A stretch of 64,000 nt of DNA from a virus. The stretch lies in the IMG/VR virus record IMGVR_UViG_3300037454_000906, positions 64,001 through 128,000 of that record; one strand, written 5' to 3'. Position 1 is the first letter of the stretch, and each line of letters opens with the position of its first letter. Below, piece after piece: positions 120 to 18,551 of the stretch. The notes beneath the pieces are model-generated. The model had not been told where the DNA came from. It did no database searches and saw only the letters and a program-made list of their open reading frames with translations. Made by a program: the position numbers and the translations under genes.

Positions 120-477
120 GTGGTATCTCCTTTTGTTTGGTTAAACTTTGGTACCACTCTACAATTAAGCTATCGCCCCACATAAATGTACAGTCAAGCC
201 CTCACTTGCATTTATGAGCTAGACCTTCCAAGTTTTTTCGTGGCGACCGGGTCGTTATGCCGGACCTGTACCCCATGTTTCTTGTGACCCCACGTTGTCC
301 CGCCGAGTACCACCGGAACCGAGGGGGTCACTGCACGGTGTGTTCCGAGTGATAGTTGAACATTGGTCACCTGCCTGGTGACGAAAATGTTGCCCGCGGA
401 TGACGGCATTGTGTTGTGGCAAGGTACGCCAACGCCACCCGCGGGCTCCCCCAGGGAAAGGGGGATTTTTAAATTTT

Positions 478-636
478 TTACTTCATGCGGTCTCCTTTGC
501 CCACGGGTTGGATATGCGCGGGACGGTGCCTGGTGAATTGCTCGCGGACTGCCTGGCGGAACGGCATTACCCCTATCGGTTCATATTCGCCCGCCATGTC
601 CTTGATCTGTACCATGTAAAGTCTTTCTTCTTTCAC
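478..636 (-). CDS. small hypothetical protein (52 aa, GTG start)
   Basis: Hand translation MKEERLYMVQIKDMAGEYEPIG..., GAGG RBS, follows 647-1018. Confidence 0.45.
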   Translation of the reverse strand: MKEERLYMVQIKDMAGEYEPIGVMPFRQAVREQFTRHRPAHIQPVGKGDRMK

Positions 637-646
637 GATTCCTCGC

Positions 647-1018
647 TTATCTTACGCTCACGGCATACACCTTGAACGAGTGACAGCAGTCAATATCGAC
701 CATCGCTTCCACCTCGAAGGCATCGCGCCAAACGTACCGTTCCTTGACATGGATGGGCTCCCCGTGCTCACCCGTCTGTATGGGCGGGACTTCCTTTCGG
801 ATATGCACCGACCACGAATACTTGTGGATGCCATCATGTTCGGGAACGCGGGGGTTGGGTCCGGGGAACACCACCGTGTCCTCCCCGAACTGATCGCGGG
901 CAATCTTGCCCACTTCGGACAGGAAGTCCTCGTGGGTCACGTAGATGGGGTTTTCGTTGTCGAGGGTTTCAAAGTCAGCACGTAGCTTGTTCTCTATCTG
1001 TTGGCAAGTCAGTTTCAT
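647..1018 (-). CDS. hypothetical cassette protein
   Basis: ORF track; start reassigned to MKLTCQQ after hairpin/SD element. Confidence 0.75.
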   Translation of the reverse strand: MKLTCQQIENKLRADFETLDNENPIYVTHEDFLSEVGKIARDQFGEDTVVFPGPNPRVPEHDGIHKYSWSVHIRKEVPPIQTGEHGEPIHVKERYVWRDAFEVEAMVDIDCCHSFKVYAVSVR

Positions 1019-1096
1019 GTCCGCTCCTTTCGTTGAACGTGCCCACGTTGTGCCGCCGGGGTGCACTGGATACGGTGCACCCGGTACACGGTTTAC

Positions 1097-1390
1097 TTAG
1101 TTACTCCATGCAGGTGATTTACACCGCGTAGGTGAGGTCGCATGTGCTCTATCATATTCTCTAATCTTGTATTTCAGTTTGCGTAATTCATCAGCACTGC
1201 ATTTTACTACAAACTTATATGCGTCATAATTAGCAATAGCGGTCCGTTGTTCATCGTTATAACAAGAAGGATGTGTACCAATAGTTTCTTGAGCATCTTG
1301 CTTCGCAATTAGCAAACCACGTTCATAAAAATGAAATTTTTCTAATGCCTCTGCATATTGTTTTCTTAAGCCATCACATATCAGTGCCAT
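1097..1390 (-). CDS. hypothetical cassette protein, AT-rich
   Basis: ORF track; truncated element upstream; visibly more AT-rich than neighbours. Confidence 0.7.
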   Translation of the reverse strand: MALICDGLRKQYAEALEKFHFYERGLLIAKQDAQETIGTHPSCYNDEQRTAIANYDAYKFVVKCSADELRKLKYKIREYDRAHATSPTRCKSPAWSN

Positions 1391-1450
1391 ATAAAATTTC
1401 CTTTCCTTGAACGTGTCTGCGATGTTCCCTGGGTGCCACGGGATCGGGCA

Positions 1451-2029
1451 CTACTTCGATCTTCGCTCAAAGGCAACTTTGATGTAATCCTCGCCATTGC
1501 CGACATATGTATTGAGAATATCCCAACCTGTGGAACCTACCTTATTCCAAGGCCGGTCGAGGTAGAAACTGCGCATGGCGTTGATTGTTTCCACCACGGA
1601 AGCGCCCTCATCAAACTTTACGGGCATGACCTTGTCATATCCATCGGACACATCCACAAGTTCAAAGCCCAACTGAACACACTTGCCATCGTCAACGATG
1701 TCAATGAGTTCCACCTCGTCCTCGCCCTCTTCATGGAGCTCTGCTGTGTCGGAGAGTACATTGCTGAGCAGGCTATCGGGCATGGGAACGATTTTCAGTT
1801 CTATGCCCCACTTGTTCTCGTCCTTGGCCTCTCCGGTCATTTCGTATTGGTTTTTCGCGTGCATGACATACTTGTAGTCGAAATCAAGGGAACCATCGTC
1901 CTCTTTATGGTGATAAGTTTCCTTTGAAGCGAGGACAACCTCGTCATCCACATCGCGGATGGTGTCAAAAAGGTCGTTCGCCTTGAGAACATCATGGTCG
2001 AACGCCACACCGAAAATCTTGTGCTTCAT
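1451..2029 (-). CDS. hypothetical cassette protein (acidic)
   Basis: ORF track; start MKHKIF after element. Confidence 0.75.
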   Translation of the reverse strand: MKHKIFGVAFDHDVLKANDLFDTIRDVDDEVVLASKETYHHKEDDGSLDFDYKYVMHAKNQYEMTGEAKDENKWGIELKIVPMPDSLLSNVLSDTAELHEEGEDEVELIDIVDDGKCVQLGFELVDVSDGYDKVMPVKFDEGASVVETINAMRSFYLDRPWNKVGSTGWDILNTYVGNGEDYIKVAFERRSK

Positions 2030-2195
2030 TCTTGTAACTCCTTTCGTTGAACGTGCCCACGTTGTGCAGCCGGATCCCACCACCCGCGGGGCACAGGGCA
2101 TACGGTGGCGCCGATTCCAAAAATTAAAAATTAAGTGCCCAAGTGGGCACTAATGGAACATGATGGACTAACAGTCGGAATCTTCTTCGTCCTGG

Positions 2196-2753
2196 CTATT
2201 CGTAGATGCTGTATACGTTATGGTACGTCAGTCCGCCCTGGTCGAGCAGAATCCATCCATCGGGGTCCAAATTGTTCATGTCGCACACACCTTTGAGCGC
2301 GTCATTGGAACTAATCGGGGGCAATTTTCCATCGAACCCTACCCATTGGCATAGGTTATCGAGGAATTTCAACCCGTTGGCTGTCGAAAGGTCGGCACTG
2401 CTGTCGGGGTTAATGAGTTCGAGCTTTCCCTTCTTGGCCAGCTTGCGCTCGGCAGTGTCCGTGACCTCATAGAGGTCGGGAATTATGCTGTTGTGGAAGT
2501 TAGCCCAGTTGCCGTTGATTTGAGTGCGATCGTTATCACAGGAACTGTCATGGTATGTGAGCTGCAAGAGTTCATGGTACTTCGGGTTATAATAGACTGC
2601 GTAGTGGCGGTCAGATACTTCATGTGAATCCGTTACCTTAATACTCTTGACCTCGTCCGGTGTGAACGTGGAAAGAATACTATCCGTCAGTTTTACGCCG
2701 TCCGGCAGGTTGATTGCCACCGTAGCCTTGTAGGTTACTAACAGTCTTTGCAT
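2196..2753 (-). CDS. hypothetical cassette protein
   Basis: ORF track; element upstream. Confidence 0.75.
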   Translation of the reverse strand: MQRLLVTYKATVAINLPDGVKLTDSILSTFTPDEVKSIKVTDSHEVSDRHYAVYYNPKYHELLQLTYHDSSCDNDRTQINGNWANFHNSIIPDLYEVTDTAERKLAKKGKLELINPDSSADLSTANGLKFLDNLCQWVGFDGKLPPISSNDALKGVCDMNNLDPDGWILLDQGGLTYHNVYSIYE

Positions 2754-2804
2754 AATGTCTCCTTTCGTTGAACGTGCCCACGATGTTCCATCGGGTCCCC
2801 CCGA

Positions 2805-3074
2805 TCATGGTGAGGTCCTGTCACGGTCGGACGGCGACCACCATCGGGTGTCCTCAAACGAGGAGCCGTCATTCAGAGAGTTCTCGTTGTCGGATAGATA
2901 GACACGGCAATGGTTTGAAAATTCGCCTATGGTGCGTTCTACCCTGGATACGATACCGCGCACCCGCTTGTCGTCATTATACCCGACCTGCACATCGTCA
3001 CCCACACGGGGTGTCTCGTTGACCTGCACCAAGTAGGAACGGCCACACCAATCTACTATTTCAATATGGAGCAT
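2805..3074 (-). CDS. hypothetical protein
   Basis: Start MLHIEIV with GAGGA RBS, coupled to 3085-3594. Confidence 0.6.
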   Translation of the reverse strand: MLHIEIVDWCGRSYLVQVNETPRVGDDVQVGYNDDKRVRGIVSRVERTIGEFSNHCRVYLSDNENSLNDGSSFEDTRWWSPSDRDRTSP

Positions 3075-3084
3075 GGGTTCCTCC

Positions 3085-3594
3085 TCAGTAATTGAGCATA
3101 TTGCGGAGTTTTTCCGCATTGGATTTTTCAAGTTTTTTCTCGGCAAGTTTGCCCGCCTTGTGCCCTTCAAGCATGGCGACAATGGTCGCGACCGCATGGG
3201 TGAGCGAAGTCTGCTGAATGAACTCAAAGTCAAAGGTAGTGCCGTAAGAGTTCTGCTCAAAGATGTGATGGCTTTCAACCACGTTCCCCTGCATATACTT
3301 GCCAATCTGGTCACCACTGACAATCCCCCAATGGACAAGCACACAAGCGCACTTGATGTAATTGTCGCTTCGTTCGTGGTGATACGTGAAGAATGGGCAT
3401 ATTGAGGTGGCCACGAAGAGGACTGCGACCTCATTTTCGCCCGCCTTGGGCTTCTCGGACATAATGAATTCGGCAATGGCCGATTCGTCGTGAAGTTCCA
3501 CCCCGTAGCGGTTGTCGGGGCCACATGGGCTATAACTGAAGGCAAGCACCCCGTTCATGGAAGTAGGCTTGGCGTTAGCGTAAATGGTCTGCAT
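3085..3594 (-). CDS. hypothetical cassette protein
   Basis: Start MQTIYAN after element. Confidence 0.75.
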   Translation of the reverse strand: MQTIYANAKPTSMNGVLAFSYSPCGPDNRYGVELHDESAIAEFIMSEKPKAGENEVAVLFVATSICPFFTYHHERSDNYIKCACVLVHWGIVSGDQIGKYMQGNVVESHHIFEQNSYGTTFDFEFIQQTSLTHAVATIVAMLEGHKAGKLAEKKLEKSNAEKLRNMLNY

Positions 3595-3670
3595 ATCTGC
3601 TCCTTTCGTTGAACATCCCCACGTTGTCACACCGGGCACCACCGCGCATGGCACGCGGTGTACACGGCAT

Positions 3671-4117
3671 TTACCCATAATGGACGAAGAACGCATCATC
3701 AATGATGTCGCCATACTTTTGCTGCATGGCGGTGTATTCTTCGGTGGGCTTGTAGATATCCCCAAAACTTACGGAGAAATACAGGCCGTCCACCATGTCG
3801 TGGCAGTCCCCCTCGTTGGCCTTGTCGTGATATTCCGGCCAGATGCTGATGTTGGTTTCGTTGGTGAACTTGCCGGAAATCTCGTCCCATAGGGCATTGA
3901 GTGTCTTGTATTCCTGGCGGTCGGTGTCAATGTCGCCCGGATTTTCAAGGCTGAGCGTCTGCGCAAGAACTTCGCGGTCGCACACTTCGTGCTCGGTAAA
4001 CTTGTACCCGTTGAACTTTCTGATGAACTCATTGACAAGATTCTCGTCCCCGACCACCTTGATGAGGTTGTCGGCGCTGATTATGTGGGCACTGTTCGCG
4101 CCATATCCCGTAGCCAT
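3671..4117 (-). CDS. hypothetical protein (acidic)
   Basis: Start MATGYG with GGAGGTG RBS. Confidence 0.7.
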   Translation of the reverse strand: MATGYGANSAHIISADNLIKVVGDENLVNEFIRKFNGYKFTEHEVCDREVLAQTLSLENPGDIDTDRQEYKTLNALWDEISGKFTNETNISIWPEYHDKANEGDCHDMVDGLYFSVSFGDIYKPTEEYTAMQQKYGDIIDDAFFVHYG

Positions 4118-4145
4118 GCGGCACCTCCGTTTTGAAAAATAAATT

Positions 4146-4523
4146 TTACCTTTCGAGCAGGTAACACCCCGCCCCTCCCGTGGCCATGAAGGTCCCCGTG
4201 CCGAGCACCAACGTGGTGCCGTCAGCCGTCCCGTAGGTCTCCGTGAGCCCGTCAGCCGAGTAGGGGACGGTGGCCTCTGTGCACCTCTCGTCACCGGAGT
4301 ACCCGATGCACACCCATGATCGGCTCTCGTACTTCGTTATCTCAACGTGAAACCGCGCTTCCGTGGTCTCACCCATCGGCACATGGTCAAGGCACCCTAT
4401 CCTGGTCACTTTCCCGTAGTCCGTGGAGGAACTTCCCACCACGCGCTCGTCGGGTACCTCAGTGGGCCCCGTGGAACACGAAACGGCCATGAGCAGGATT
4501 GCAAAAATTAAAAGTTTCTTCAT
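4146..4523 (-). CDS. putative lipoprotein
   Basis: MKKLLIFAILLMAVSC signal peptide with lipobox-like Cys. Confidence 0.7.
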   Translation of the reverse strand: MKKLLIFAILLMAVSCSTGPTEVPDERVVGSSSTDYGKVTRIGCLDHVPMGETTEARFHVEITKYESRSWVCIGYSGDERCTEATVPYSADGLTETYGTADGTTLVLGTGTFMATGGAGCYLLER

Positions 4524-4672
4524 GATGTTACCTCTCGTCCGTCGTATCCCACGGTGTGCTCCCGGATTCCACCGCCCCGGGATCCCCGGACACGCGGTGG
4601 GAAAGGATCTAAATTAGTGGACAAAGAGGGGCGGGCCGTGGCCCGTCCCCCTTGTTCAGCGGAGTCAGATAT

Positions 4673-4873
4673 TTAACATTCGTATGCCAGGTAGAATTCA
4701 AGGGAATCCTGGCAGTGATGGTATTGTTTGAGGAAATTCTCGGCTTCATCCGGCGCCATTTGATGCAGGTCGCGCCAGAGTCTGGAATAGAGACCCTGCG
4801 AACCCGCCATGTCACCGATGTAACCCATGAGTCGCCTTGAATCCGCGCTCAGCGTGTCATTCAATCTTGACAT
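4673..4873 (-). CDS. small hypothetical protein
   Basis: ORF track; GGAGG RBS. Confidence 0.65.
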   Translation of the reverse strand: MSRLNDTLSADSRRLMGYIGDMAGSQGLYSRLWRDLHQMAPDEAENFLKQYHHCQDSLEFYLAYEC

Positions 4874-4882
4874 GTTGCCTCC

Positions 4883-5329
4883 TTATGCCGCTTCCAACTT
4901 GCTGCGCAGGTCACCGATTCGGTAGTAGAATCCCGATGTGTGCAGCGAATTGGCGAGCTTGAGATAGTGGATATCGTAGTGGTGCATGAACTCGTGCAGG
5001 AGCGTTCCCGTGAACGTCTTTATCGCGACAACCTTGTTGGTCTTTGCGGTATAGTTGTACACGTTGATGAACTTGCTCTCGTACACCCCGTTGCGCTTGT
5101 TGAGCCTGATGTAGCCCTTGGTGGTCACTCGGCCATTGACCTTTCGTGCCTTGTCGGCAACGTTGACCCTCACGCGGGGAATCTTGAACTCATCGCATAG
5201 GTAGTTGATGAGGTCCTGCGAGCTTGTCTCGCGGTCGCCAGTGTCGGCGAGCAAGGTCTGATATGCCGGAGTGGATAACTTCTCGCGATCAACTGTCGTG
5301 ATTGCTTTGGATTGTTCGTATGCGTCCAT
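4883..5329 (-). CDS. HExxH zinc metallopeptidase-like protein (SprT-like)
   Basis: GTLLHEFMHH motif followed by LANSLHTSGF (third His). Confidence 0.65.
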   Translation of the reverse strand: MDAYEQSKAITTVDREKLSTPAYQTLLADTGDRETSSQDLINYLCDEFKIPRVRVNVADKARKVNGRVTTKGYIRLNKRNGVYESKFINVYNYTAKTNKVVAIKTFTGTLLHEFMHHYDIHYLKLANSLHTSGFYYRIGDLRSKLEAA

Positions 5330-5471
5330 GCTTGACTCCTTTTATTGAACGTGCCCACGATGTATCCCCGGCCCCCACCAAGCGTGGGGCACCTGATACA
5401 TGGTGGGACGTGGCCAACACTAGTAAAAATTAATGCCCCTTTCGGGGCAAGGTTAGTGTTCAGATTCCCTG

Positions 5472-5879
5472 CTAGGGTTCAAATTCATGTCTTGCCTTGA
5501 CTCGCTCGTAGATACTAAGGATAGTCTGCTTGATAGACGGCCACCTATCCACGAATGCACCGAAGTGGTGGGGTGCGAAGTCATAGTAGAACCCTTCATC
5601 GTCCTTGAAGTGGTAATCACCGCAACCACTAGAAATATGAGGGTCATTGAACTTTGCCAAGGCAATGCAGCCTACACCCATCGCTATTCCACGTTCCTTG
5701 CAGATACTCCACCAATAGTGGTAGCCGTTCACTTCAAACTTGCCGCGTGCCCCATTGGAGTAAAGTTCATTAATGCAGTCCGCGGGAATGTTTTCCTTTA
5801 CCCAATTACGAATTTTGATTACATTCTTGATGGCAAGATAGTTCTTGTCACTCGGGTCTAAATCGTTGATGTTTCTCAT
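5472..5879 (-). CDS. hypothetical cassette protein, AT-rich
   Basis: Start MRNINDL after element. Confidence 0.75.
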   Translation of the reverse strand: MRNINDLDPSDKNYLAIKNVIKIRNWVKENIPADCINELYSNGARGKFEVNGYHYWWSICKERGIAMGVGCIALAKFNDPHISSGCGDYHFKDDEGFYYDFAPHHFGAFVDRWPSIKQTILSIYERVKARHEFEP

Positions 5880-6026
5880 GTTGTACTCCTTTTGTTGAAC
5901 GTGTCCACGATGTATCTCCGGCCCCCACCGATCGTGGGGCGCCTGATACATGGTGGTGCAGCATGTCAAAATTGAAAAAAAGTGGCAGGGGATTTCTCCC
6001 CTGCCGTGTTCATCGGAGTCAGAAAA

Positions 6027-6377
6027 TCAAACATTGTTGATTACTTCAATCTTGTCCTCGGGGAGCGATTCAAGGTAGGTCTCTATGCAATGCTTGACCT
6101 CGCACCACAGGAGTCCGTTTCCGTCCTTCCATTCCTCCCAAATCAATCCGTCAAGGGCCTTTTTGATGCCATACTCTTCGCGGCAGGAGAACCCCATCTC
6201 GCGGAACTGATCAAGGTCATGCATCTCGTCCATCACGGACACCAGCTCGCGCGCCCCGAAGTCATATCCGCCATACCTCCCTGTGGTGAGGATGATGGAA
6301 CTAAACGGAGAGGTCATGAGGATGCCATGATGGTCGGACACGTCATCCTGCTCGGAACTGTCGCTCGCGAAGTCCAC
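6027..6377 (-). CDS. hypothetical cassette protein (GTG start or 5' frameshift)
   Basis: The ATG after the SD (6379) opens only a ~21-aa frame; the long frame starts at GTG 6377. Confidence 0.5.
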   Translation of the reverse strand: MDFASDSSEQDDVSDHHGILMTSPFSSIILTTGRYGGYDFGARELVSVMDEMHDLDQFREMGFSCREEYGIKKALDGLIWEEWKDGNGLLWCEVKHCIETYLESLPEDKIEVINNV

Positions 6378-6532
6378 ATTTTTAACTCCTTTCGTTGAAC
6401 ATGCCCACGATGCGTCACCGGGGTCCACCGGGTGCGATGGGCCATGCACACGGATGGACAAAAGGTGTCCCCGCAAGAGGAGGCTCCGTCTCTAATGTGC
6501 CTGGGAGTTGTTCCTCCCCGTGCGGGGCAGTA

Positions 6533-6805
6533 TCATTTGATGGGCGTACGCTCCTTGTTCACAGACCATTCTTCACAGAAGCAAGAGAACGGGGCGAGTA
6601 GCGGACATAGCTCCTTGGCCCTGGCGATGGCCAGCTGAGCAAGCTCGCTATCGTTGGGCACGTGCGTCCCGTACACGCTGTCCGCGTTGACATCCGAGCC
6701 ATCGGGGTTGCACTGATGGTCAAGCGTGAGCCCCACCCATAGGGTCACGTCAAGGTTGCCTTCCTTGGGCAGCACGTGTACGTAATAGTGGAATTTTTCC
6801 CCCAT
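6533..6805 (-). CDS. hypothetical protein
   Basis: ORF track; GAGGAGG RBS. Confidence 0.7.
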   Translation of the reverse strand: MGEKFHYYVHVLPKEGNLDVTLWVGLTLDHQCNPDGSDVNADSVYGTHVPNDSELAQLAIARAKELCPLLAPFSCFCEEWSVNKERTPIK

Positions 6806-6973
6806 CTAGTCCTCCTCGCTAACTCGCTTGTTACGTGGTTTCTTGCGCTTGTCAGGCACCTTCCGTGTGCGGAGCTTGCGCCCGTTCTCGGTCTCGGATA
6901 TGCGGATGGCGCGCTGCCCCTTGCTTTCTTTCCCGTCAACCGAAATTGAAATTGTGATTGTCATGTTCTTCAT
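6806..6973 (-). CDS. small basic cassette protein
   Basis: Start MKNMTI after element; Lys/Arg-rich. Confidence 0.6.
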   Translation of the reverse strand: MKNMTITISISVDGKESKGQRAIRISETENGRKLRTRKVPDKRKKPRNKRVSEED

Positions 6974-7105
6974 CGCTGACTCCTTGTTTCCGAACGCACC
7001 CACGATGTGCCGCCGGGGTCCACCGCCCGCGCATCCAGCGGCACACGGTGGCACCGGGGCGAAATTGAAAGAAAAAGTAAACTTTCGTTTACCCTTTCTT
7101 CCCTA

Positions 7106-7393
7106 CCGTTAACTGAAACCTACCTAAATCTACCACTAGGACAGACCTACGTGATTTCCTGCCTTGCCCATTGCTGAGTAGGCCGTAACGGCACTTAATC
7201 AACCGCATCTACGCGATATACCTAATATGCATCAAGCAACACGGCTGACTTGCCTAGTCCTACTCCATTACTGAAGAGCCTTAACACGGTCGGCATATCA
7301 AACTAGGCATTGTTAAATATACATTATTTCCATTAGCATATTTAAGTATATTTAGTTAAATGTTGTTAACATTTTCGTTAACTGCTAACAACC
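7106..7393 (-). mobile_element. non-autonomous IS607-like element (left end + omegaRNA-like right end), copy 1
   Basis: ~288 bp, nearly identical to 24028-24313. GG at both junctions, preceded by TGTG. Right end (AGGAAATCACG...TAGGTTTCAGTTAACGG) homologous to the TnpB element end at 20480-20542. Interrupts a small ORF. Confidence 0.8.
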
Positions 7394-7497
7394 CACACAC
7401 CAAGCATGAATACCGCGAAGGCGCCACCGAGCATCGGATGTACCGAGTAGAGGTATCCGGTCACGACGAGCGCTCCGATGAATGCGAGGCACCCCAT
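7378..7497 (-). CDS. small membrane protein, 3' end replaced by the inserted element
   Basis: MGCLAFIGALVVTGYLYSVHPMLGGAFAVFMLGVW|VVSS*; removing the element gives ...VWVGKKG*. Confidence 0.6.
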   Translation of the reverse strand: MGCLAFIGALVVTGYLYSVHPMLGGAFAVFMLGVWVVSS

Positions 7498-7504
7498 GGT
7501 CGCC

Positions 7505-7645
7505 CTACTTGCGCCTGCGGAACCTGCCGTAAAGGTCGGTGTTCCCGTTGGAGTGTACGTTCACGGGGCGCACAGAGGGCAGTCCCGCGCTCTTCGCGGC
7601 AAAGGAGGCGAATTTGAAAAATTTTGTGGAGATGAGTCTGAGCAT
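7505..7645 (-). CDS. small basic hypothetical protein
   Basis: TAATG overlap with upstream gene; MLRLISTKFFKF... Confidence 0.45.
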   Translation of the reverse strand: MLRLISTKFFKFASFAAKSAGLPSVRPVNVHSNGNTDLYGRFRRRK

Positions 7646-8157: not shown

Positions 8158-8244
8158 GTCTGTCTCCTTTTGTTGAACATGCCCACGATGTGCCCCCGGG
8201 TCCCACTGCACATGGGACACCGGGCACACGGTCGTTGGATAGAT

Positions 8245-8451: not shown

Positions 8452-8461
8452 GCTATACCCC

Positions 8462-10104: not shown

Positions 10105-10253
10105 GTTTAACTCCTTTGCTGAACACTCCCACGATGTGTCACCGGGTGCCACCGATCGTGGCACACCGGACACACGGTGGAAACAATGGATGCAAGTTAA
10201 AAAATTTAGTGCCCAAGCGGGCACTAATTGTAAAATTAAATTATCGTCCGACC

Positions 10254-10778: not shown

Positions 10779-10900
10779 AGCTGAACTCCTTTTTCTGAAC
10801 ATGCCCACGATGTTCCACCGGATCCCACCGCGCGCGGGGCACCGAATCCATGGTGGGAATGAAAATAAAAAATTGAAATTCGGGCTTTCGCCCGATTTCA

Positions 10901-11452
10901 CTATTTGCACTTCGCCTTGATTTCTGTGCGGTTGTCAAGGAACCACTTGATGTCTTCCACCAAATTTTCAGCGGTCTCTTCCACTGAATTGGCGTTGGCG
11001 CCCACTGCAAGCAACTTCTTTACTTGGTCAAGTGAGTCAGCATGTTCCTTGCGCTTTTGGGCGATAAAGGCGTAACACTTGGCAAGGCTATCCTTTCCTG
11101 CCTCTCCAAAGAACTTGGCAAAATGCATGCCCACATACACTTCCACCTCGTAGTTGTTTTGGTTTAAAACGCAGTGGCCCGTTTTCAGCAATTGGTCCAT
11201 GTGGACACTTGCATTAAAGATTTCGGGGCCGTAGCAATGGAGCAGGCAACGTTGATAATCCTCCTTGCCAATGGTCTGAATGCCGAGTTCGTGGCGATAG
11301 GAATAGCTGGACTTCTTAGAAAGGACGAAATAGAGCTTGTCCGATTCTACGCGGGCATAGTCTTTCACTTCTACTTTGTCGGAATTTACATCAACATTGC
11401 CAACGATTTCAAATGCGTAGCGGTTGGTGTAGCGAATAATGGTTGTAGCCAT
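10901..11452 (-). CDS. hypothetical cassette protein
   Basis: Start MATTIIR after element. Confidence 0.75.
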   Translation of the reverse strand: MATTIIRYTNRYAFEIVGNVDVNSDKVEVKDYARVESDKLYFVLSKKSSYSYRHELGIQTIGKEDYQRCLLHCYGPEIFNASVHMDQLLKTGHCVLNQNNYEVEVYVGMHFAKFFGEAGKDSLAKCYAFIAQKRKEHADSLDQVKKLLAVGANANSVEETAENLVEDIKWFLDNRTEIKAKCK

Positions 11453-11615
11453 AATGGACTCCTTTTGTTGAACATGTCCACGATGTTCCACCGGATCCCA
11501 CCGCACATGGGACACCTGGAACATGGTGGGGGCGCAGTCAATAAAAAATGAAATCCCGAATGTCCTCATGGGTGTTAAGCCCCCCACCGCGCCGATTGGA
11601 CATTCGGGATAAAGG

Positions 11616-11756
11616 TTAAATTCTCAGAACCGAACGGCAGACATGCACCATGTCCCCGAAGATAACGTCACGCCAACGACAACCCACGCAGAACACGCCT
11701 TTAACGATGGACGGGGCTGGCTTGGTCGGCACACGCTTGCTATGCTTTCCCATCAT
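11616..11756 (-). CDS. small Cys-containing hypothetical protein
   Basis: Hand translation MMGKHSKRVPTK...CVGC; overlaps upstream stop. Confidence 0.4.
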   Translation of the reverse strand: MMGKHSKRVPTKPAPSIVKGVFCVGCRWRDVIFGDMVHVCRSVLRI

Positions 11757-11988
11757 CCCCATCCTTCACGGGAGTCAGCGCCCCGTTAGAAATCAAAAAT
11801 TCATGGAGCTTCTTGGTCACAAGGTATTCCTTGCCGTCAACGTTGTAGGTGTACACGGAGAAACACTTTTCCCCCTTGCGCACGAATCCGGTTATGGAAT
11901 CGGAAACCGTGATGTCAGCCTTGCTCGCCTTTAAAATGTCAGCGAGCGCATCGTGGTCGGCCCTGCACTTCTTGAAAAAATTCTGCAT
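11740..11988 (-). CDS. hypothetical cassette protein
   Basis: Start MQNFFKK after element. Confidence 0.7.
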   Translation of the reverse strand: MQNFFKKCRADHDALADILKASKADITVSDSITGFVRKGEKCFSVYTYNVDGKEYLVTKKLHEFLISNGALTPVKDGDDGKA

Positions 11989-12140
11989 TTCAAACTCCTT
12001 TTCTGAACATTCCCACGTTGTGCCGCCGGACTCCACCCGTCACGGGAATCCAGGCCCGCGGTGGGCGCCCTTGTCACAAAAAACGTATCGCTTTTGTGAC
12101 AACCCCGCCCCCGATGGGGGACGGGTGTCCACCCCCATGC

Positions 12141-12467
12141 CTAGACGGCAACCGAGCCCGCTTGGTGCAGCTCGGGGACATACGCATAGACACGCCAATG
12201 CCCCTCGGTGTAATGCGTTTCGGCCCAAAGAGCCGCCTGTGTCGGGTTGTCAAAGGTCATGCCGTTCTCGTCGTCACGCCATTCCCCGACCGCATAGCTC
12301 TCTTTCTTGCCCGTCAAGGGATTGTCCTTGTGGCCGATGAACTTTCGGAACCATACTTCCCCACTGACCTTGTAGGTCACGCTAGGGAACATCTGTTTCA
12401 AAATAGTGTAGGGGAGTTGTTCTATTTCCCTTGCGTTGGCTATCGCCATGAGTTCGTTATTGCCCAT
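12141..12467 (-). CDS. hypothetical cassette protein
   Basis: ORF track; element upstream. Confidence 0.75.
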   Translation of the reverse strand: MGNNELMAIANAREIEQLPYTILKQMFPSVTYKVSGEVWFRKFIGHKDNPLTGKKESYAVGEWRDDENGMTFDNPTQAALWAETHYTEGHWRVYAYVPELHQAGSVAV

Positions 12468-12610
12468 TTGGTACTCCTTTGATGAACATGGTCACGATGT
12501 GCCGCCGGCCCCCACCACCCGTGGCCCATCGGACACACGGTGGAACCGGAGCCCACACCGAAAAAAGAAAAGGAAAAGGGTCGCCCCATTCCTTTTCTGT
12601 GGAAAAAACC

Positions 12611-13036
12611 CTAGTCCTTTTCTATGGAAACCTTATCCAATACGTAAATATCCCCGTTGGATAACTTGATGGCGTCATGCTCCGAGAGGTCGGCCATGGC
12701 GCTGCAACAGCCCCATTCGGCAGTGAATCCCCAATGGGCGATGGCGGCCTCGCGCCAGCTCTTGTAGTCCGTTCCGGCCTTCTCGTTGTAGGGCCCGATC
12801 TTCTCGTTGTCAATCGCCGGACCTTCGTCATTTTTGAGGTAGATGGCCGAGCATCCGGTAAAGCCGCCTTCAAGCAAGGACAGGGCGCAGTCGTTGTTGA
12901 TTTCATGGGCAAGAGCCTCTTCGCCCTTCTTCTTGCGGGTGAACCACTTGTCCACCCCATCGTCATTAGCGTTGCGGGTTTCAAGGTGATAGACCTTGAT
13001 TAGCTTGTAGGGCTGCTCCAAAAAATTTTTCTTCAT
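12611..13036 (-). CDS. hypothetical cassette protein
   Basis: Start MKKNFLE after element. Confidence 0.75.
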   Translation of the reverse strand: MKKNFLEQPYKLIKVYHLETRNANDDGVDKWFTRKKKGEEALAHEINNDCALSLLEGGFTGCSAIYLKNDEGPAIDNEKIGPYNEKAGTDYKSWREAAIAHWGFTAEWGCCSAMADLSEHDAIKLSNGDIYVLDKVSIEKD

Positions 13037-13222
13037 GGTTGTATCCTTTTGTTGAACACACCCACGCTGTGCAGCCGGACCCCACCCGCCGCGGACCCAC
13101 GGGAACATGGTGGAACCGGTCATCCTTCCGGCACCGGGTACATGGTGGAACCCGGATAATTTCCGTTACAGAAAAGGGGCAAGGGCGAACCCCTGCCCCC
13201 CGTTCATCGGAGTCAAAAGCCC

Positions 13223-13546
13223 CTAGTCGGTCATGCGGTAGAAGTAGTCCGCTGCGTCCCCTTCAAGCATGTCGCACGCATACGTGTCCGCCGTGCGCCA
13301 AAGTTCGTCATAGAGTTTCGCATACTCAGGGTTTTTCTCGTGCCATTCCCAAATCTTGTGGTTGAGGGCGATGACGAGGTGGGTGAGGTAGCGGTAGTCA
13401 CGTTTCCATTCGTTGAACGCCCGGTTGAACGTGTCACGGATGGCCTTTACCCCGAACTTATCAGCAATGGTGAAGTCGCTGGGGAACGTGGTGGAGAACC
13501 CCTCCTCGTTCAACTTTTCCGAAATTTTCTTTTCCTTGGTTTCCAT
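13223..13546 (-). CDS. conserved phage hypothetical protein
   Basis: TTFPSDFTIADKFG..AIRDTFNRAFNEWK..YLTHLVIALNHKIW, a pattern I recall from gut phages; not searched. Confidence 0.7.
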   Translation of the reverse strand: METKEKKISEKLNEEGFSTTFPSDFTIADKFGVKAIRDTFNRAFNEWKRDYRYLTHLVIALNHKIWEWHEKNPEYAKLYDELWRTADTYACDMLEGDAADYFYRMTD

Positions 13547-13715
13547 GTAGCCTCCTTTTTCTGAACATGCCCACGGTGTATCCCCGGACCCAACCGATCG
13601 CGGGGATCCGGATACACGGTTGGCACCAGGTAAAAAATTTGGGGGAATGCCCACCCAAAATATTCGGGGAACTTCTATATCGTATTGGATGCCGTTTTGA
13701 AAGCCCCGTTAAACC

Positions 13716-14312
13716 TTAAATCCCCTGCATTCCCTGTTCAAAAATTTCGGGATAGAGCCTACAAATTGAAGTATATCCGCTCCGACCGATGACGATGTGG
13801 TCAAGCACAGGAAGTTTCAAAATTTTTCCCGATGCGCATAGCACTCGGGTCAATGTAATATCCTGCTCGGATGGCGCAGTGTCACCGCTCGGGTGATTAT
13901 GGGCAAATATGACACTCACTGCATTGTCAAGTATAGCAAAACGGAACGATTCCCGTGGGGCGCATTTGGTTTCGTTCACGAGCCCCTTGGTCACGATGTG
14001 CTTGCCGATGATATGGTTGTGTGAATCAAGGGTCACCACAACCATGTTTTCCTGCCGTTCCCACTTCAACCACGATACGTGATTGACGATTGTGGAAGGG
14101 TCGGTGACGGATATTGCCCTAGTCCCAGCAAGATACTCCGCAGAACTCTCCATGACCATGAGCAGAGTGTTGGCAACGTTCATGCCGACACCACGGAACT
14201 TCACAAGGTCGTTCGCCTTTGCGTAGGGGTTCTCGGCGAGATAGTCGGCAACCCTTATACCCGTGTATTCGTCGCCTATTATGCGACCGAAAATCTGTGC
14301 CAAACTTGTCAT
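13716..14312 (-). CDS. radC: RadC-like JAB/MPN domain protein
   Basis: QENMVVVTLD...APRESFRFAILDNAVSVIFAHNHPSGDTAPSEQD...LPVLDHIVIG; start MTSLAQ after element. Confidence 0.9.
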   Translation of the reverse strand: MTSLAQIFGRIIGDEYTGIRVADYLAENPYAKANDLVKFRGVGMNVANTLLMVMESSAEYLAGTRAISVTDPSTIVNHVSWLKWERQENMVVVTLDSHNHIIGKHIVTKGLVNETKCAPRESFRFAILDNAVSVIFAHNHPSGDTAPSEQDITLTRVLCASGKILKLPVLDHIVIGRSGYTSICRLYPEIFEQGMQGI

Positions 14313-14461
14313 GGCGAACCTCTTTGAATTGAACATGCCCACGCTGTTCCGCCAGGGCCAACTGCACGCGGGGATCCGGATACACGGTTGGCGCGGCTCC
14401 CCCGAGGAAAAAAGTTTGGTGCCCGTGTGGGCACCTAGTTCACTCCCATGTCCCGCACGGC

Positions 14462-14779
14462 TTACGGAGTCACCAACTTCGCCCTGTCCTTGAACCAATC
14501 GGTCGCCACAATCTTGGCATAGTCGGGCTGCTTGGGGTTTGCCTTGAACGCATCGTTCACGGCTTTCATCATGGTGTCGTTGCGGAAATAGAGGACCTTG
14601 CCCTCGGCCTCCACATTGATGAACGGAGACCATCCATCCTCCACTTGGTAACGGGCGTCCTTGGCTTCCTCCTCGGTAGAAAATTCCACCTCGTAGTGCT
14701 TGGTCTCCTTGATGGGCTTGGCCGACTCGGCCATCATCGCAGCCATCGCCAATTCGCCAATAACATTGATTCCCGACAT
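14462..14779 (-). CDS. hypothetical cassette protein
   Basis: Start MSGINV after element. Confidence 0.7.
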   Translation of the reverse strand: MSGINVIGELAMAAMMAESAKPIKETKHYEVEFSTEEEAKDARYQVEDGWSPFINVEAEGKVLYFRNDTMMKAVNDAFKANPKQPDYAKIVATDWFKDRAKLVTP

Positions 14780-14916
14780 TGCAAACTCCTTTTGAACATG
14801 CCCACGATGTATCCTCGGCCCCAACCGCCCGCGGGAATCCGGATGCACGGTTGGCGCCGATGATAAAATTTTTAAAGGAAGGTGCCCAAGTGGGCACCTT
14901 TTTTCGTGGCTACAAG

Positions 14917-15324
14917 TTAAAGGTTAAAGTTGATTTCGTGTTTCAGTTCGTCGGGGATTTCGTCTTTGAGGATTTTGTCGTCATCCCACACGGAGTCGGG
15001 AATGTAGCCGTCCCCGTCAGGTTCGGCGAACCCGTTCTTGATGGCGTCACGCAGAACGCCCATGTCGCCCTCGTCAATCTTGCGGAGCTCGGCCACGGAG
15101 AGCTGAACGCTCATGCCGACACGCATCCAAATCTTGTGCTTCTTGTTTTCGTCAATTTCCTTTTTCTCGGGTTCGGGACATTCCCCGCTTTCGGAATTTT
15201 CTTCCGCTTCGCCGAAATCATCGTCGGACGGGGCGGGATTTTCAAACCCGCAGTCCATACAGAAAAACTGTCCGTTGTCTTCCGAGATGTTCTCGCTGCC
15301 GCAATTCCAACACTTCTGTGCCAT
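14917..15324 (-). CDS. zinc-ribbon protein with acidic linker
   Basis: CWNC-x12-CMDC at the N-terminus. Confidence 0.75.
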   Translation of the reverse strand: MAQKCWNCGSENISEDNGQFFCMDCGFENPAPSDDDFGEAEENSESGECPEPEKKEIDENKKHKIWMRVGMSVQLSVAELRKIDEGDMGVLRDAIKNGFAEPDGDGYIPDSVWDDDKILKDEIPDELKHEINFNL

Positions 15325-15467
15325 ATTGTACTCCTTTCGTTGAATGTTCCCACGATGTTCCACCGGACCCCACCGCATGCTCCACCCAGGGAACACGGTG
15401 GACGCCCGGCCACCCCGAGGTACATGGGCGCCCCGATGCAGTATCGGGGCGCCCCGTTTCCTCCCTC

Positions 15468-15719
15468 TTAGCCCTGTACCAAAGACCAGCTGGGATGCTT
15501 GACCATTCGGCCCGACTTGTCAAGTCCGTGAATCCACTTCTTGACGATGCGCCACCCGATAAGGCGATAATCTTCCCGTTCGGTGCGGTACCAGATGCTG
15601 CCGTTGTTGTAGTCAACGAACACGCCGAGGAACGCACCGCCCGCACGCTTGGCGGCTTCCCATGCCTTTTGGCACAGATTGCGCAACTGACCCATGACCT
15701 TGTAGACGAATTTTTTCAT
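15468..15719 (-). CDS. hypothetical cassette protein
   Basis: Start MKKFVYK after element. Confidence 0.7.
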   Translation of the reverse strand: MKKFVYKVMGQLRNLCQKAWEAAKRAGGAFLGVFVDYNNGSIWYRTEREDYRLIGWRIVKKWIHGLDKSGRMVKHPSWSLVQG

Positions 15720-15845
15720 TTCCTGAACTCCTTTGGTTGAACATGCCCACGTTGTATCCCCGGAGTCCACCGGATCAGTTACCCCGGATACCCGGTGGGC
15801 GCCCGTGAACCCGTGGGGAAAGGGGACGCGCCCCGTCCCCCTTGG

Positions 15846-16331
15846 CTAGTCAATAAGATATTTCCAGTCTCGGATTATGCCCTCAACGTCCACCTCGGCA
15901 CCTGTGGCTACATCAACGAACACCCCGTGCGCGGGACACCAAAGGACACTATGGCGATGGTTCCCCAAGTAGTCAACCCCCACCACCTTTGCCGCGTACT
16001 GGGCTCCGTTGTGGCGCAGACCCATCTTCACGGGGGTGTACTGGAAGATGTGACCCTCTTCCATGAGGCGCCTGACGAGCTCCGTGAGGCCGTCCTCGGG
16101 CAGGTTCACCTCAACCACTTCCCAGTAATGGATGCACCCGCGGTAGTCAAGGCTGACTGCCTCGTCGGTGACCTCGGGATCCGCCTCGATTCCTTCCCGT
16201 TCCTTGAATTCAAGGGCTAAGCGGAGAGCCTCCCCCTTGGCCAAGTCAAACGTTTCGCAAGGTTCGCCCTGTTGGCCGGTGATGCTTTCATGCGAATCGC
16301 ACCTGTTGACAACGATGTATTTGATTGACAT
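15846..16331 (-). CDS. hypothetical cassette protein
   Basis: Start MSIKYIV after element. Confidence 0.75.
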   Translation of the reverse strand: MSIKYIVVNRCDSHESITGQQGEPCETFDLAKGEALRLALEFKEREGIEADPEVTDEAVSLDYRGCIHYWEVVEVNLPEDGLTELVRRLMEEGHIFQYTPVKMGLRHNGAQYAAKVVGVDYLGNHRHSVLWCPAHGVFVDVATGAEVDVEGIIRDWKYLID

Positions 16332-16458
16332 ATGGCTCCTTTTCTGAACGTGCCCACGGTGCGCCGCCGGACCCCACCGGATCCGGTTCACGGGGAACAC
16401 GGTTGGCGCGGTTCCCCAGAGGCGAAAAGTTTGGTGCCCATGTGGGCACCTAGTTCAC

Positions 16459-16665
16459 TCATGCTGCCTTCTTCATGGAATCATATTCCGCACGGAGTTC
16501 ACGGAGTCTGGCGTCACGGTACCCAATGAACCTCGTCCACTGCTCGTGCCAACGATGGGACCTGCCCACATCCCGCATGTTCGCCATGTGGTCAAAGATG
16601 CCGTCGCAGATGCGGCAAAGGGTCATGTACTTCTTGTCCGAATGGACGCATTCCTTGAAATTCAT
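16459..16665 (-). CDS. small hypothetical protein (CxxC)
   Basis: ORF track; CRIC motif. Confidence 0.6.
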   Translation of the reverse strand: MNFKECVHSDKKYMTLCRICDGIFDHMANMRDVGRSHRWHEQWTRFIGYRDARLRELRAEYDSMKKAA

Positions 16666-16688
16666 AGCGTACCACTTTAAAAAATTTT

Positions 16689-16874
16689 TTACATGCCGCT
16701 CTCAATGGCCATGGAAAAGTCAACGCAGTCCTTGCAGCCGTGATACCTGCTCAGCGCGGCCTCGGTCTGCTCGGGACCCATCTCATCAAAATATTTCAGA
16801 AGACGCCCGTAGAACCCCTGAGCACGGGAAAGGGCCCTTATCCACCCGAGTATGGTCTTGGTCTTTTCGCTCAT
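16689..16874 (-). CDS. small cassette protein
   Basis: Start MSEKTKT after element. Confidence 0.65.
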   Translation of the reverse strand: MSEKTKTILGWIRALSRAQGFYGRLLKYFDEMGPEQTEAALSRYHGCKDCVDFSMAIESGM

Positions 16875-17113
16875 GTTGAAACTCCTTTTCTGAACACGCC
16901 CACGGTGCACCGCCGGACCCCACCGGATCCGCTACGCCGGGCACACGGTGGCGCCGCACGCGTCACGATACAGGAACGGGCGGTTCCCGAGGGGTATCGG
17001 GAACCGCCCGTCATTGCTTGGCTCGGGCTTCGGATGCCAGTTTCGCCCTGCGGTCGCCTATTCATATCGTCGTAAGTTGGACATCCCGACCCGACGACCT
17101 TGCCACATATCCG

Positions 17114-17257
17114 CTACTTGCCCACGGGGCGCACCACGCACGGGAATCCCGCTGCGCTGCGCTTGGCAGCGTTCCTGTCCGCAACCGACTTCTTGTAGTG
17201 GGAAGAGAAAAGGTTGAGACCGGCAGTGGTGACCGAGTAAACGCCATACTTTTTCAT
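17114..17257 (-). CDS. small basic cassette protein
   Basis: Start MKKYGVY after element. Confidence 0.55.
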   Translation of the reverse strand: MKKYGVYSVTTAGLNLFSSHYKKSVADRNAAKRSAAGFPCVVRPVGK

Positions 17258-17396
17258 TTTGTAACCTCCGTTGTTTGAACATGCCCACGTTGCGCCCCCG
17301 GACCCAACCGCCCGCGGGACATCCCGGACACGGTGGGGCGCGCCGTGTCCCTTGAAGCATGGTGCCCATATGGGCACCCCGTCTCCCCCCGTGCAA

Positions 17397-17780
17397 TTAC
17401 TTCTTCATTTCGTCCCCCCTGCTGAGCTCGTTTAGCACGAGCGTGTTCATGTCCGTCTCGGGCGCCTCCAAGAGCGAGAGGACCCTGTGCAGAGTGTGGT
17501 TCGGCATGTAGCCGAATTCGAATGCACGCTTTGAGCCGTCTTTGTCATCGCACACGATTACGGGATTCATGTCGGCTCCAGCGGCCACATGGGTTATCGT
17601 GAACTTCAGGGGAGGCATATATCCCTTGATGCTGAACTTGACGGGTTTCGGGAGAGGCACCAGCTTTTTACGCTGATCGGCCTCGCTGCATTCGGGGAAC
17701 ATTGCCCCCGCCTTCGCCATGATGCTCTTGTAGAGGTGCTCCCTGTACATTACCGCAGTGAATACGCCCATAGATGCCAT
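17397..17780 (-). CDS. hypothetical cassette protein
   Basis: Start MASMGV after element. Confidence 0.7.
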   Translation of the reverse strand: MASMGVFTAVMYREHLYKSIMAKAGAMFPECSEADQRKKLVPLPKPVKFSIKGYMPPLKFTITHVAAGADMNPVIVCDDKDGSKRAFEFGYMPNHTLHRVLSLLEAPETDMNTLVLNELSRGDEMKK

Positions 17781-17847
17781 GATGTAACTCCTTTTGATGA
17801 ACATGCCCACGATGCGACGCCAGGTCCCACCAAGGGCGGGACTGTGG

Positions 17848-18006
17848 TCACATGGTGGCCCCCAAGCAAAACACTGACCCGCAGGAGGCCGTAGGGCTAT
17901 CGCATACCAAATCCGGTGCCCCCATGTAGCATTCCGCCTCCATGCTTAACTCGTCCTCCATGAGGTCCGTGTCAAGTTCGCATCGTGCATCTAGTTCGGT
18001 AACCAT
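17848..18006 (-). CDS. small acidic cassette protein
   Basis: Start MVTELD after element; stop overlaps next element. Confidence 0.45.
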   Translation of the reverse strand: MVTELDARCELDTDLMEDELSMEAECYMGAPDLVCDSPTASCGSVFCLGATM

Positions 18007-18254
18007 GCGTGCCTCCTCGGGTTGAACGGGCCCACGCTGTGCCGCCGGACCCCACCGACCGCGGGACACCGGACGCACGGCGGGTGCAAGTTCCTGGGGA
18101 CCGAAAGGCCGTATAGGGAACATGGGGCACAATTGAGCACCATGGTAGCGTCCTCGGTTCCCCCGGTGTCCCCAGGGTCCCGCGGGGTGACCCCCGCGCC
18201 CACGGTGTCCCACCGGCGGGCGCGCCCGCCGGGACGCGAGGGGGACATGGCCGG

Positions 18255-18510: not shown

Positions 18511-18551
18511 ATTTTTATGAATAATATAAGCTGTATTATAGATACAGTGGG

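Follow-up and report, generated by a model that had tools for sequence, protein, structure and literature searches.

A covarying hairpin ahead of the translation start recurs along a long gene-cassette array of a huge ruminant-gut phage

Phages are known to carry regulatory modules that recur at the boundaries of gene cassettes, among them the promoter early stem-loop (PeSL) modules of T4-type phages, the start-associated sequences (SAS) and extended start-associated sequences (ESAS) of Cluster K mycobacteriophages and the RNase III sites of T7; their mechanisms are mostly unproven. Here we describe a hairpin element that recurs before the genes of an array in IMG/VR virus record IMGVR_UViG_3300037454_000906, a viral contig of 253,117 bp (52% G+C, 99% complete according to CheckV). 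The stretch under analysis, hereafter the window, comprises 64,000 nucleotides, bases 64,001-128,000 of this contig; positions refer to the window unless the genome is named. A reading of the letters of the window (the original prediction) had placed there an array of cassettes punctuated by copies of a GC-rich hairpin, taken as an undescribed cis-acting RNA or single-stranded DNA element that coordinates the expression of the genes, shuffles them, or both. We find that the element is a phage cassette-junction module with a covarying hairpin, instead of a promoter, as its conserved core, of unusual scale and present clade-wide in huge phages of the ruminant gut. In concept the PeSL, ESAS and T7 RNase III sites are its closest counterparts, and it lacks the sequence features that define the first two.

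The RNase III sites of T7 (Dunn & Studier), about 10 in number, are conserved, interrupted hairpins of ~20 bp just 5' of gene starts, and they act on polycistronic RNA. The element likewise shares its sequence among copies in a single-strand gene series, and its folds, covariation and position reveal an interrupted helix of ~20 bp between cistrons, 5' of a gene start. Unlike the T7 sites, half of its copies come after a terminator, and no RNase III gene was detected in the phage. The hairpin promoter of phage N4, used by the virion RNA polymerase, has a 5-7-bp stem and a 3-nt loop on the template strand; the stem here measures 20-25 bp and the loop 5-7 nt, and profiles detected no RNA polymerase in the phage.

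The PeSL modules (PMC2839356, PMC4122927) are repeated and intergenic, end with a Shine-Dalgarno sequence (SD) and ATG, and flank small ORFan genes in hyperplastic regions; in all this the element resembles them. The terminator stem-loop just upstream of a PeSL has its counterpart 8-20 nt 5' of about half the copies here, the indels between close relatives at PeSLs correspond to four cassette-sized skips described below, and the degraded half modules near indels to a half element at 1404-1474. However, the core of a PeSL is a sigma70 promoter with -35 and -10 boxes (TTGACA-N17-TATAAT or variants) and its stem-loop is a short terminator, whereas the core here is a covarying hairpin of 20-25 bp without sigma70 boxes, in ~70 copies in a strand-pure 73-kb array.

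The ESAS of Cluster K (PMC3203893) is similar: an inverted repeat directly precedes a conserved sequence that includes the SD, and the module is found before many unrelated genes in a single orientation, conserved across subclusters and without an assigned function. Its arms, on the other hand, are 17-bp imperfect half-sites with a consensus, separated by a 4-13-bp spacer, and 11-19 SAS sites are scattered over each genome; the arms here are ~23 nt long, carry compensatory changes, conserved bulges and a mismatch, and stand in 70 copies in a contiguous array. The 13-bp SAS reads GGGATAGGAGCCC; the tail and SD of our element read CGTGGGCAYGTTCAACAAAAGGAG or variants, and its arms show no similarity to the ESAS description. 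Long co-oriented arrays of promoterless ORFan cassettes with imperfect palindromes and variable content are also typical of integron attC sites, including the Vibrio superintegron. Unlike those, the present array has no IntI-type recombinase, its head gene being TnpB-like, and the attC core boxes RYYYAAC/GTTRRRY are absent, the base of the element reading GCCCACCGTGT ... ACAnCGTGGGC.

A repeat search of window 1-20,000 returned families of 20-23 copies with a unit of 70-95 nt, and between 289 and 18,250 the minus strand has 29 occurrences of the core motif CAnCGTGG. We built a covariance model (R1) from 35 clean aligned copies with an explicit hairpin structure and searched the whole genome with it. 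Between 277 and 18089 R1 matched 29 minus-strand copies, which scored 18.6-85 bits; together with two further degenerate copies recognised by eye, the half element at 1404-1474 and a head copy at 18187-18257, they bear out the predicted count of ~31. The predicted extent had to be revised. Instead of an 18-kb array between two tail-less bookends, we found ~70 copies on the minus strand running from 82.2 down to 9.5 kb of the genome, a span of ~73 kb that takes up nearly one third of the 253-kb genome. Of the two bookends only that at 18199 is a true end, the 5' head of the array; the one at 289 lies inside the array, and its tail is of the subtype seen in the next segment. The R1 search returned no element copy in the remaining 170 kb of the genome, and the only two plus-strand matches were weak and overlapped minus-strand copies.

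Single-copy folds and alignments gave an interrupted stem-loop of ~52-60 nt with a folding energy of about -23 to -27 kcal/mol, arms of ~23 nt and an overall stem length of 20-25 bp. The foot, P1, has 4-6 bp (GCCCAC/GTGGGC, covarying with CCTAC/GTAGG) and is followed by a conserved C.C mismatch adjoining a variable G.N position. Above it, P2 (6-7 bp) is separated from P3 (CCGG paired with CCGG) by two bulged nucleotides in the 3' arm, and P3 from P4 (6-7 bp) by a single bulged nucleotide; a loop of 5-7 nt closes P4. On the 3' side of the hairpin an unstructured, CA-rich tail of 10-25 nt leads to the SD and start codon. The tail subtype shifts stepwise along the array, from CGTGGGCAYGTTCAAC... 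at genome 64.6-82 kb through CGTGGGGTCACAAGGAAAC... at 56-64 kb to CGTAGGGGCAGAAATC... below 53 kb.

Across all four genomes studied, ACCGTGT, the CC and GG of P4, CCGG and ACAnCGT were invariant, and the basal motif was so although the coding DNA of these genomes is only 65-75% identical. Non-helical features carry the invariant nucleotides: the C.C mismatch together with ACCGUGU/ACAnCGU around it, the bulge next to CCGG, and the 3' part of the loop. Other stem positions covary freely.

The covarying arms claimed in the original prediction withstood an explicit pairing test, and the arm pairs it had quoted are present where it placed them. Among the window copies 76% of the cells were paired, compared to 37-52% when the partner was slid; the corresponding values were 81% and 34-50% for three related IMG/VR contigs, and 87% and 31-54% for 137 distinct metagenome copies. 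None of 500 shuffles reached the covariation score in any of the three sets. The alignments of the relatives and of the metagenome copies were fitted by R1 and hence lean towards the model, although single-sequence folds independent of the seed agree with them and give the same bulged hairpin.

Covariation was found in P1, P2 and P4, in this genome, the three relatives and the 137 metagenome copies alike. In the relatives, for example, one pair occurred as AU14/UA14/GC12/CG3 and another as CG31/GC17; in the metagenome copies we counted AU49/UA47/GC23/CG8, CG74/UA57 and GC102/CG29. The pair beside the C-C mismatch does switch among A-U, G-U and G-C, as had been noticed, but it reads G.A, G.G or A.G in 11 of 31 copies. 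Base pairing is under strong selection, and with four genomes and hundreds of metagenome copies the claim of a cis-acting structured element is well supported by covariation. Two other folds were set aside. An off-register 5-bp stem, proposed by RNAalifold on an ungapped alignment, was replaced by the explicit structure test. A helix between the 5' CCACCG and a central CGGTGG was paired in 86% of window copies, with CAACC/GGTTG double changes, and was rejected as the main fold: it is incompatible with P4, a pseudoknot is sterically impossible, and by inspection it is lost in diverged copies.

Nearly all copies lie 10-25 nt 5' of an AAGGAG-type SD and ATG and are co-oriented with the minus-strand gene; the gene-side sequence is the CGTGGGCAYGTTCAACAAAAGGAG type given above. 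Some genes of the array have no element and are translationally coupled to the preceding gene. On the upstream side, the gap between stop codon and hairpin foot was bimodal in all genomes, from -3 to +9 nt or from 40 to 110 nt. The short gap, with the stop codon abutting the hairpin and no terminator, was found at 26 of the 65 junctions here; the long-gap junctions, about half of the total, carry a G+C-rich hairpin with a T-run. Among the metagenome copies, no more than ~8-20 nt separate the end of the T-tract from the hairpin foot.

When copies were anchored on the invariant CGT, no segment of the array showed a conserved block on the upstream side of the hairpin. Sigma70-like sites were at chance (12, against 13.0 +/- 3.4 in shuffles) and none was associated with an element; sigma54-, sigma70- and extracytoplasmic function (ECF)-like readings of the tail and arms, attempted by eye and by scan, gave no fit. 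The exact sequence TAnnTTTG was found 10 times in the metagenome copies at a spacing that puts the final G at -16 to -9 relative to the foot, and twice in the other 72 positions. Allowing one mismatch, it was present in 41 of the 137 metagenome copies (9.0 +/- 2.6 in shuffles). For the primary sigma factor of Bacteroidota, TAnnTTTG is the -7 box (PMC7366714); if the box is used, the transcript would begin on the 5' side of the hairpin, a few nucleotides away.

The cargo, in the original prediction a putative host-takeover set, is largely of ORFan type. Among 62 element-linked proteins searched against Pfam, 54 had no match; the remaining matches were RadC, SpoVG, a ChlI-type ATPase, a TnpB/Cas12-like protein, a zinc ribbon and an RPA-C-like domain. 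We found no paralogues within the array among 65 cargo proteins, and thus the repeats are not by-products of gene duplication. One relative had homologues of the present cassettes for 17 of 42 cassettes and another for 9 of 23, at 30-66% amino acid identity. Elements before orthologous genes were no more alike (0.64) than those before non-orthologous genes (0.645), whereas elements of the same genome had a likeness of 0.71 that fell to 0.64 with distance along the array. Since same-genome copies are more alike than orthologous ones and the likeness decays with distance, the elements evolve in concert.

Contigs of other strains show cassette-sized skips, 1059->2087, 7017->8213, 14350->15383 and 9541->10200, with ends inside elements or at the 5' foot; one strain skip runs from terminator to terminator. 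Loose ends in strain contigs fell at the element apex, the tail end or the 5' foot. Relative to the CAnCGT anchor the junctions lay at about +4 to +26, -20 and +42, alignment ends being imprecise in diverged strains. Scars of the same kind are seen in the half element (1404-1474) and in the duplicated arm (~13,120-13,160); the latter had been predicted for copy 13044, and a duplicate of the 5' arm does lie upstream of copy 13049-13119. The proposed shuffling is thus supported in a weaker form: indel junctions lie inside elements and cassette content varies among relatives, but the junction positions appear to vary, no dedicated recombinase was found, and the comparison of cassette order gave mostly collinear shared cassettes with a few displaced. 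Cassette turnover looks like homology-driven exchange rather than a site-specific system.

The element is not confined to this genome. IMG/VR contig 3300028833_000278 is filled with it (46 copies in 42 kb), and it stands at the contig ends of 3300028797_000098 (18 copies) and 3300028591_000075 (8 copies). A metagenome scan yielded at least dozens of multi-copy contigs, some of 159-399 kb, and R1 found 400 copies in 411 kb of ruminant-gut metagenome loci among the matches listed. The sequencing runs containing this DNA are bovine, goat and sheep gut metagenomes. A pattern scan of 185,579 bacterial and archaeal genomes returned single matches at chance level, except for two Fibrobacter metagenome-assembled genomes (MAGs), one of them from Hadza human gut. 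Each has one good copy (34 bits) in the stop-hairpin-SD-ATG layout (L099:4351-4420, minus strand; L102:2029-2098, plus strand), adjoining a homologue of the cassette gene 4149-4523 (32% over 110 aa). These copies are a weak hint and may be either a clue to the host or a binned phage fragment; the TAnnTTTG box fits the Fibrobacter hint.

The view that the element is undescribed holds, given that no Rfam match, no likeness to the phage's own CRISPR repeats and no paper was found. Rfam 15, searched with the whole window at gathering thresholds, matched only a tRNA-Val; for window 8100-12100 at E<=1 the only hit was a chance match of PhotoRC-I on a terminator, with 18 bits against the 45 needed. 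Literature searches returned no paper describing the element.

We tentatively read the element as a transcribed stem-loop, in a leader or between cistrons, that serves to stabilise or process mRNA and whose copies recombine as a side effect; we give this reading a chance that comes near to even without reaching it. It draws on the constant location 5' of the SD, the uniform orientation with the genes, the length of the helix and, in a subset of copies, the promoter-like box upstream. Stem-loops at the 5' end are known to stabilise bacterial mRNAs, as in ompA and the T7 gene 10 leader. In cassettes with their own terminator and a -7-type box, transcription would start a few nucleotides before the foot and the hairpin would cap the 5' end of the mRNA; where the upstream stop codon abuts, the hairpin would lie between cistrons of a polycistronic RNA. 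It could then shield the downstream message from 5'-end-dependent decay or, alternatively, be cut by a double-strand-specific RNase in the manner of the T7 sites. The linker and SD would be insulated from upstream sequence, so that any cargo gene would be translated alike, and the invariant basal motif ACCGUGU/ACAnCGU might be read by one common factor of host or phage. That the elements coordinate expression, as originally predicted, we infer from position, namely the fixed SD distance and the promoter-like box 5' of the hairpin in a subset. Recombination and gene conversion among ~70 copies in direct orientation would suffice to delete, replace and add cassettes with no dedicated mechanism or enzyme.

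Several observations weigh against this leader reading, the first group of them concerning RNA pairing. This genome by itself speaks for the reading: the sense fold was more stable in 48 copies and the antisense fold in 18 (p = 2.5e-4), and the core pairs included 101 G.U versus 52 A.C, so the G-U pairs reported for the sense strand are real here. The excess, however, came from three P4 positions (65 vs 9 A.C), the other core pairs having 36 vs 43, and it was absent or reversed elsewhere: 28 G.U versus 45 A.C in the relatives, with the sense strand folding better in 31 copies and the antisense in 45, and 12 versus 15 in the metagenome copies, with 45 and 92, respectively. Therefore, the wobble argument for RNA fails outside this genome. 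There the helix is essentially Watson-Crick only, which is atypical for a functional RNA helix, and the pairing pattern fits a DNA hairpin equally well.

The remaining points against the leader reading concern promoters, factors and transcripts. With one mismatch allowed, TAnnTTTG was found in only a minority of copies in this genome (6 of 62, shuffle mean 2.8), and the phage uses SDs genome-wide while the box belongs to Bacteroidota, which normally lack them (PMC7366714). Many terminator-preceded cassettes have no recognisable promoter, and their transcription is unexplained. Neither RNase III nor a candidate RNA-binding protein was detected in the phage genome, and the invariant basal motif is not accounted for by a stabiliser that acts only passively. 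Three metatranscriptome runs contain the region as assembled contigs, in which starts, ends and cleavage are not readable; the multi-kb contigs spanning elements could be DNA carry-over. The missing wobble tolerance elsewhere and the promoterless cassettes behind terminators are the main unexplained points, and they keep DNA-level readings alive.

If the hairpin acts as RNA, it could instead be an operator for a sequence-specific RNA-binding protein of phage or host, by which the translation or decay of ~70 mRNAs, the entire set of accessory or early genes, would be switched together, as T4 RegA and RegB act on early messages as shared switches. We regard this as unlikely. Invariant nucleotides at non-helical features with the rest of the stem free to covary, and the short fixed distance to the SD, are what such an operator would show, and a genome-specific reader would make same-genome copies more alike than orthologous ones; but gene conversion alone can explain that likeness, no candidate protein was identified in the phage, and a helix kept at its full 20-25 bp is longer than typical protein operators. 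The likelihood is somewhat lower again that the element is a promoter at the DNA level, perhaps an extruded hairpin, used by the host RNA polymerase with a phage factor or by an unrecognised phage polymerase, each terminator-insulated cassette being its own unit. The element occupies the place that the sigma70 promoter has in T4-type PeSLs, between terminator stem-loop and SD (PMC4122927); about half of the junctions have a terminator 8-20 nt upstream and no sigma70 promoter; outside this genome the helix is strictly Watson-Crick and the sense strand is not favoured; and the phage encodes a sigma70-family protein as well as two proteins (1,631 and 1,706 aa) without an explained role. No polymerase signal was seen in these two proteins by profiles or by a language-model look-alike search, though, and no RNA polymerase beta-type domain was detected in the genome; the search with the T7-type polymerase profile was uninformative, its control matching no genome. 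Free covariation of the stem is not a property of double-stranded promoters, and the N4 hairpin promoters have stems far shorter than 20-25 bp. Moreover, ~40% of junctions have the stop codon abutting the hairpin and no terminator, and the -7-type box upstream in a subset would make the hairpin transcribed.

A slightly smaller probability goes to an integron-attC-like recombination site in single-stranded DNA, at which a structure-specific recombinase would insert and excise promoterless cassettes. The architecture is in keeping with it: small ORFan cassettes stand in a long array, all in one orientation; the palindromes between them are imperfect, with a conserved base, extrahelical bases and an apex that varies; stop codons abut the next site; cassette-sized indels have junctions at elements; cassette content differs between relatives; and pairing is strictly Watson-Crick. 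Against it, tyrosine recombinase PF00589 was absent from this 99%-complete genome, all 14 control genomes being matched, and a single Y1 transposase TnpA (genome 186545-186922) and a single serine recombinase (148803-149225) stand beside tnpB genes, far from the array and with no element nearby. The junctions, at apex, tail end and 5' foot, do not appear to share one crossover point, shared cassettes are mostly collinear, and the TnpB-like head gene had no homologue in the one relative searched. We think it just as improbable that the hairpin is the single-stranded DNA site of an integrase-less gene-capture platform of the phage, read through its mismatch and bulges by an unrecognised structure-specific enzyme that would insert and excise ORFan cassettes equipped with an SD. 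Least probable of all is a processive antitermination signal, a put- or nut-like RNA reloaded at each cassette, with which polymerase from the head promoter would read through intrinsic terminators. Strong terminators inside a single-strand array, many followed by no recognisable promoter, would call for such a signal, and the first copy, a structured element of put-like size, comes right after the AT-rich head. In known systems, however, one or two sites suffice for kilobases; the element stands after and not before the adjacent terminator, is equally present where terminators are absent, and forms one long hairpin, not the two-stem put fold.

The array features in the window are all on the minus strand and are given here from the head onwards. 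An AT-rich head of ~530 bp (18258-18790), divergent to the TnpB-like ORF, precedes the first element and contains AAATGTTTAC twice and TTTTGA twice; from its sequence it is likely the entry promoter region of the array, and no sigma70 consensus was found in it. At ~18300-18400 we noted a TGATTTTG box ~15-20 nt before the first hairpin, which together with the two repeats is a possible entry promoter or regulator site. The degenerate head copy (18187-18257) retains the basal 3' motif CACCGTGGG, differs in its apical part, lacks the usual tail and falls below the threshold of the covariance model.

The copies that follow are listed with the R1 score and the open reading frame (ORF) they precede: 18019-18089 (69.8 bits, with SD and ATG; ORF 17851-18006), 17794-17864 (71.4 bits; 17400-17780), 17272-17342 (70.8 bits; 17117-17257), 16887-16957 (68.1 bits; 16692-16874), 16341-16411 (70.4 bits; 15849-16331) and 15734-15804 (66.3 bits; 15471-15719). 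The skip 14350->15383 has its junctions at 15337-15407 (65.6 bits; 14920-15324) and 14326-14396 (65.2 bits; 13719-14312), with 14789-14859 (74 bits; 14465-14779) between them. Next are 13558-13628 (81.4 bits; 13226-13546), the copy with the partial 5'-arm duplicate just upstream (13049-13160 in all, 64.8 bits; 12614-13036), 12479-12549 (66.5 bits; 12144-12467), 12000-12070 (69 bits; 11743-11988) and the top-scoring copy at 11465-11535 (85 bits, fold of -27.5 kcal/mol, z -3.9; 10904-11452). Copy 10792-10862 (74.9 bits; 10257-10778) is followed by 10116-10186 (83.5 bits; 9592-10104), whose entire cassette is missing in another strain by the skip 9541->10200, and by 9477-9547 (83.4 bits; 8961-9464) and 8831-8901 (78.6 bits; 8465-8809).

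The junctions of the skip 7017->8213 are at 8170-8240 (83.4 bits; 7648-8157) and 6987-7057 (68.1 bits; 6809-6973). Further on we found 6392-6462 (55.5 bits; 6030-6377, with a GTG start), 5892-5962 (76.1 bits; 5475-5879, with an upstream terminator, T-tract and CAATTTTG), 5342-5412 (78.7 bits; 4886-5329), 4536-4606 with an atypical tail (52.6 bits; 4149-4523, lipoprotein-like), 3606-3676 (55.8 bits; 3088-3594) and 2765-2835 (48.4 bits; 2199-2753). Copies 2044-2114 (73.2 bits; 1454-2029) and 1030-1100 (63.3 bits; 650-1018) hold the junctions of the skip 1059->2087; between them, the half element at 1404-1474 keeps the apical stem, 3' arm, tail and SD, lacks the 5' arm, and is abutted by the upstream stop codon. 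The diverged copy at 277-347 (18.6 bits) has the tail subtype of the next segment (GGGGTCACAAG...) and no SD with ORF directly behind it. Terminator-like hairpins with a T-run precede copies 14326 (14418-14435), 10792 (10880-10895), 10116 (10206-10227), 8831 (8923-8942), 5892 (5984-6005), 5342 (5434-5449) and 2044 (2134-2151).

Two genes of the same strand follow directly after the 3' end of the array: a 256-aa ORF with sigma70 region 2 (L001:7451-8218, minus strand) and an FtsK/HerA-type ATPase of 400 aa (L001:8305-9504, minus strand). The gene divergent to the array head is a 578-aa ORF with a Cas12f1/TnpB TNB domain (18792-20528, plus strand). At least seven more TnpB-type ORFs were seen, for example at 44906-46192 of the window and at 18.4, 128.4, 145.3, 182.3 and 185.0 kb of the genome.

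A CRISPR-like array of 8 repeats (23513-24009) adjoins an 894-aa ORF without Pfam match (24346-27030, minus strand). A second array, of 9 repeats (genome ~27.8-28.4 kb), has as its neighbour a 426-aa TnpB/Cas12-like gene, which is itself preceded by a hairpin element (genome 29887-29959). Mimicry of CRISPR repeats was considered for the element and rejected, both repeat families of the phage's own type V systems being unlike it. The spacers of the second array, the one extracted, match only themselves. Its spacer 5 (L002:8407-8436, genome ~28207-28236) ends with GCTCGAACC, the first 9 nt of the repeat of the other array on the coding strand, which could reflect targeting of a related phage's array or chance.

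The tetranucleotide GATC is depleted genome-wide (observed/expected 0.54), CCGG, CGCG and TCGA are not; the depletion suggests avoidance of a GATC-specific restriction or Dam-type system. CCGG, considered as a restriction or methylation target, was dismissed, as it is not avoided genome-wide (observed/expected 0.95). A tRNA-Val with anticodon TAC (61906-61981, plus strand) was the sole Rfam/ARAGORN match in the window. Between two elements, at genome 39247-39372, a 130-nt spacer ends in a sequence like a tRNA 3' half (…GGTTCGAGTCCGTCTCCGGCACC) and may be a tRNA fragment or a small RNA.

In the element family, a single covarying hairpin joined to a translation start region is available in hundreds of natural versions. 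It is a well-powered system for studying how a large, fast-turning-over set of ORFans is given standardised expression, and how such sets are exchanged. In contigs of uncultivated huge phages the element may serve as a marker of accessory or early regions and of cassette boundaries. If the insulating or stabilising role is true, the element would be a natural expression part for Fibrobacter-like hosts. If, on the other hand, the reading as single-stranded DNA gene capture is true, a clade of huge rumen phages would carry an integron-like system of independent origin.

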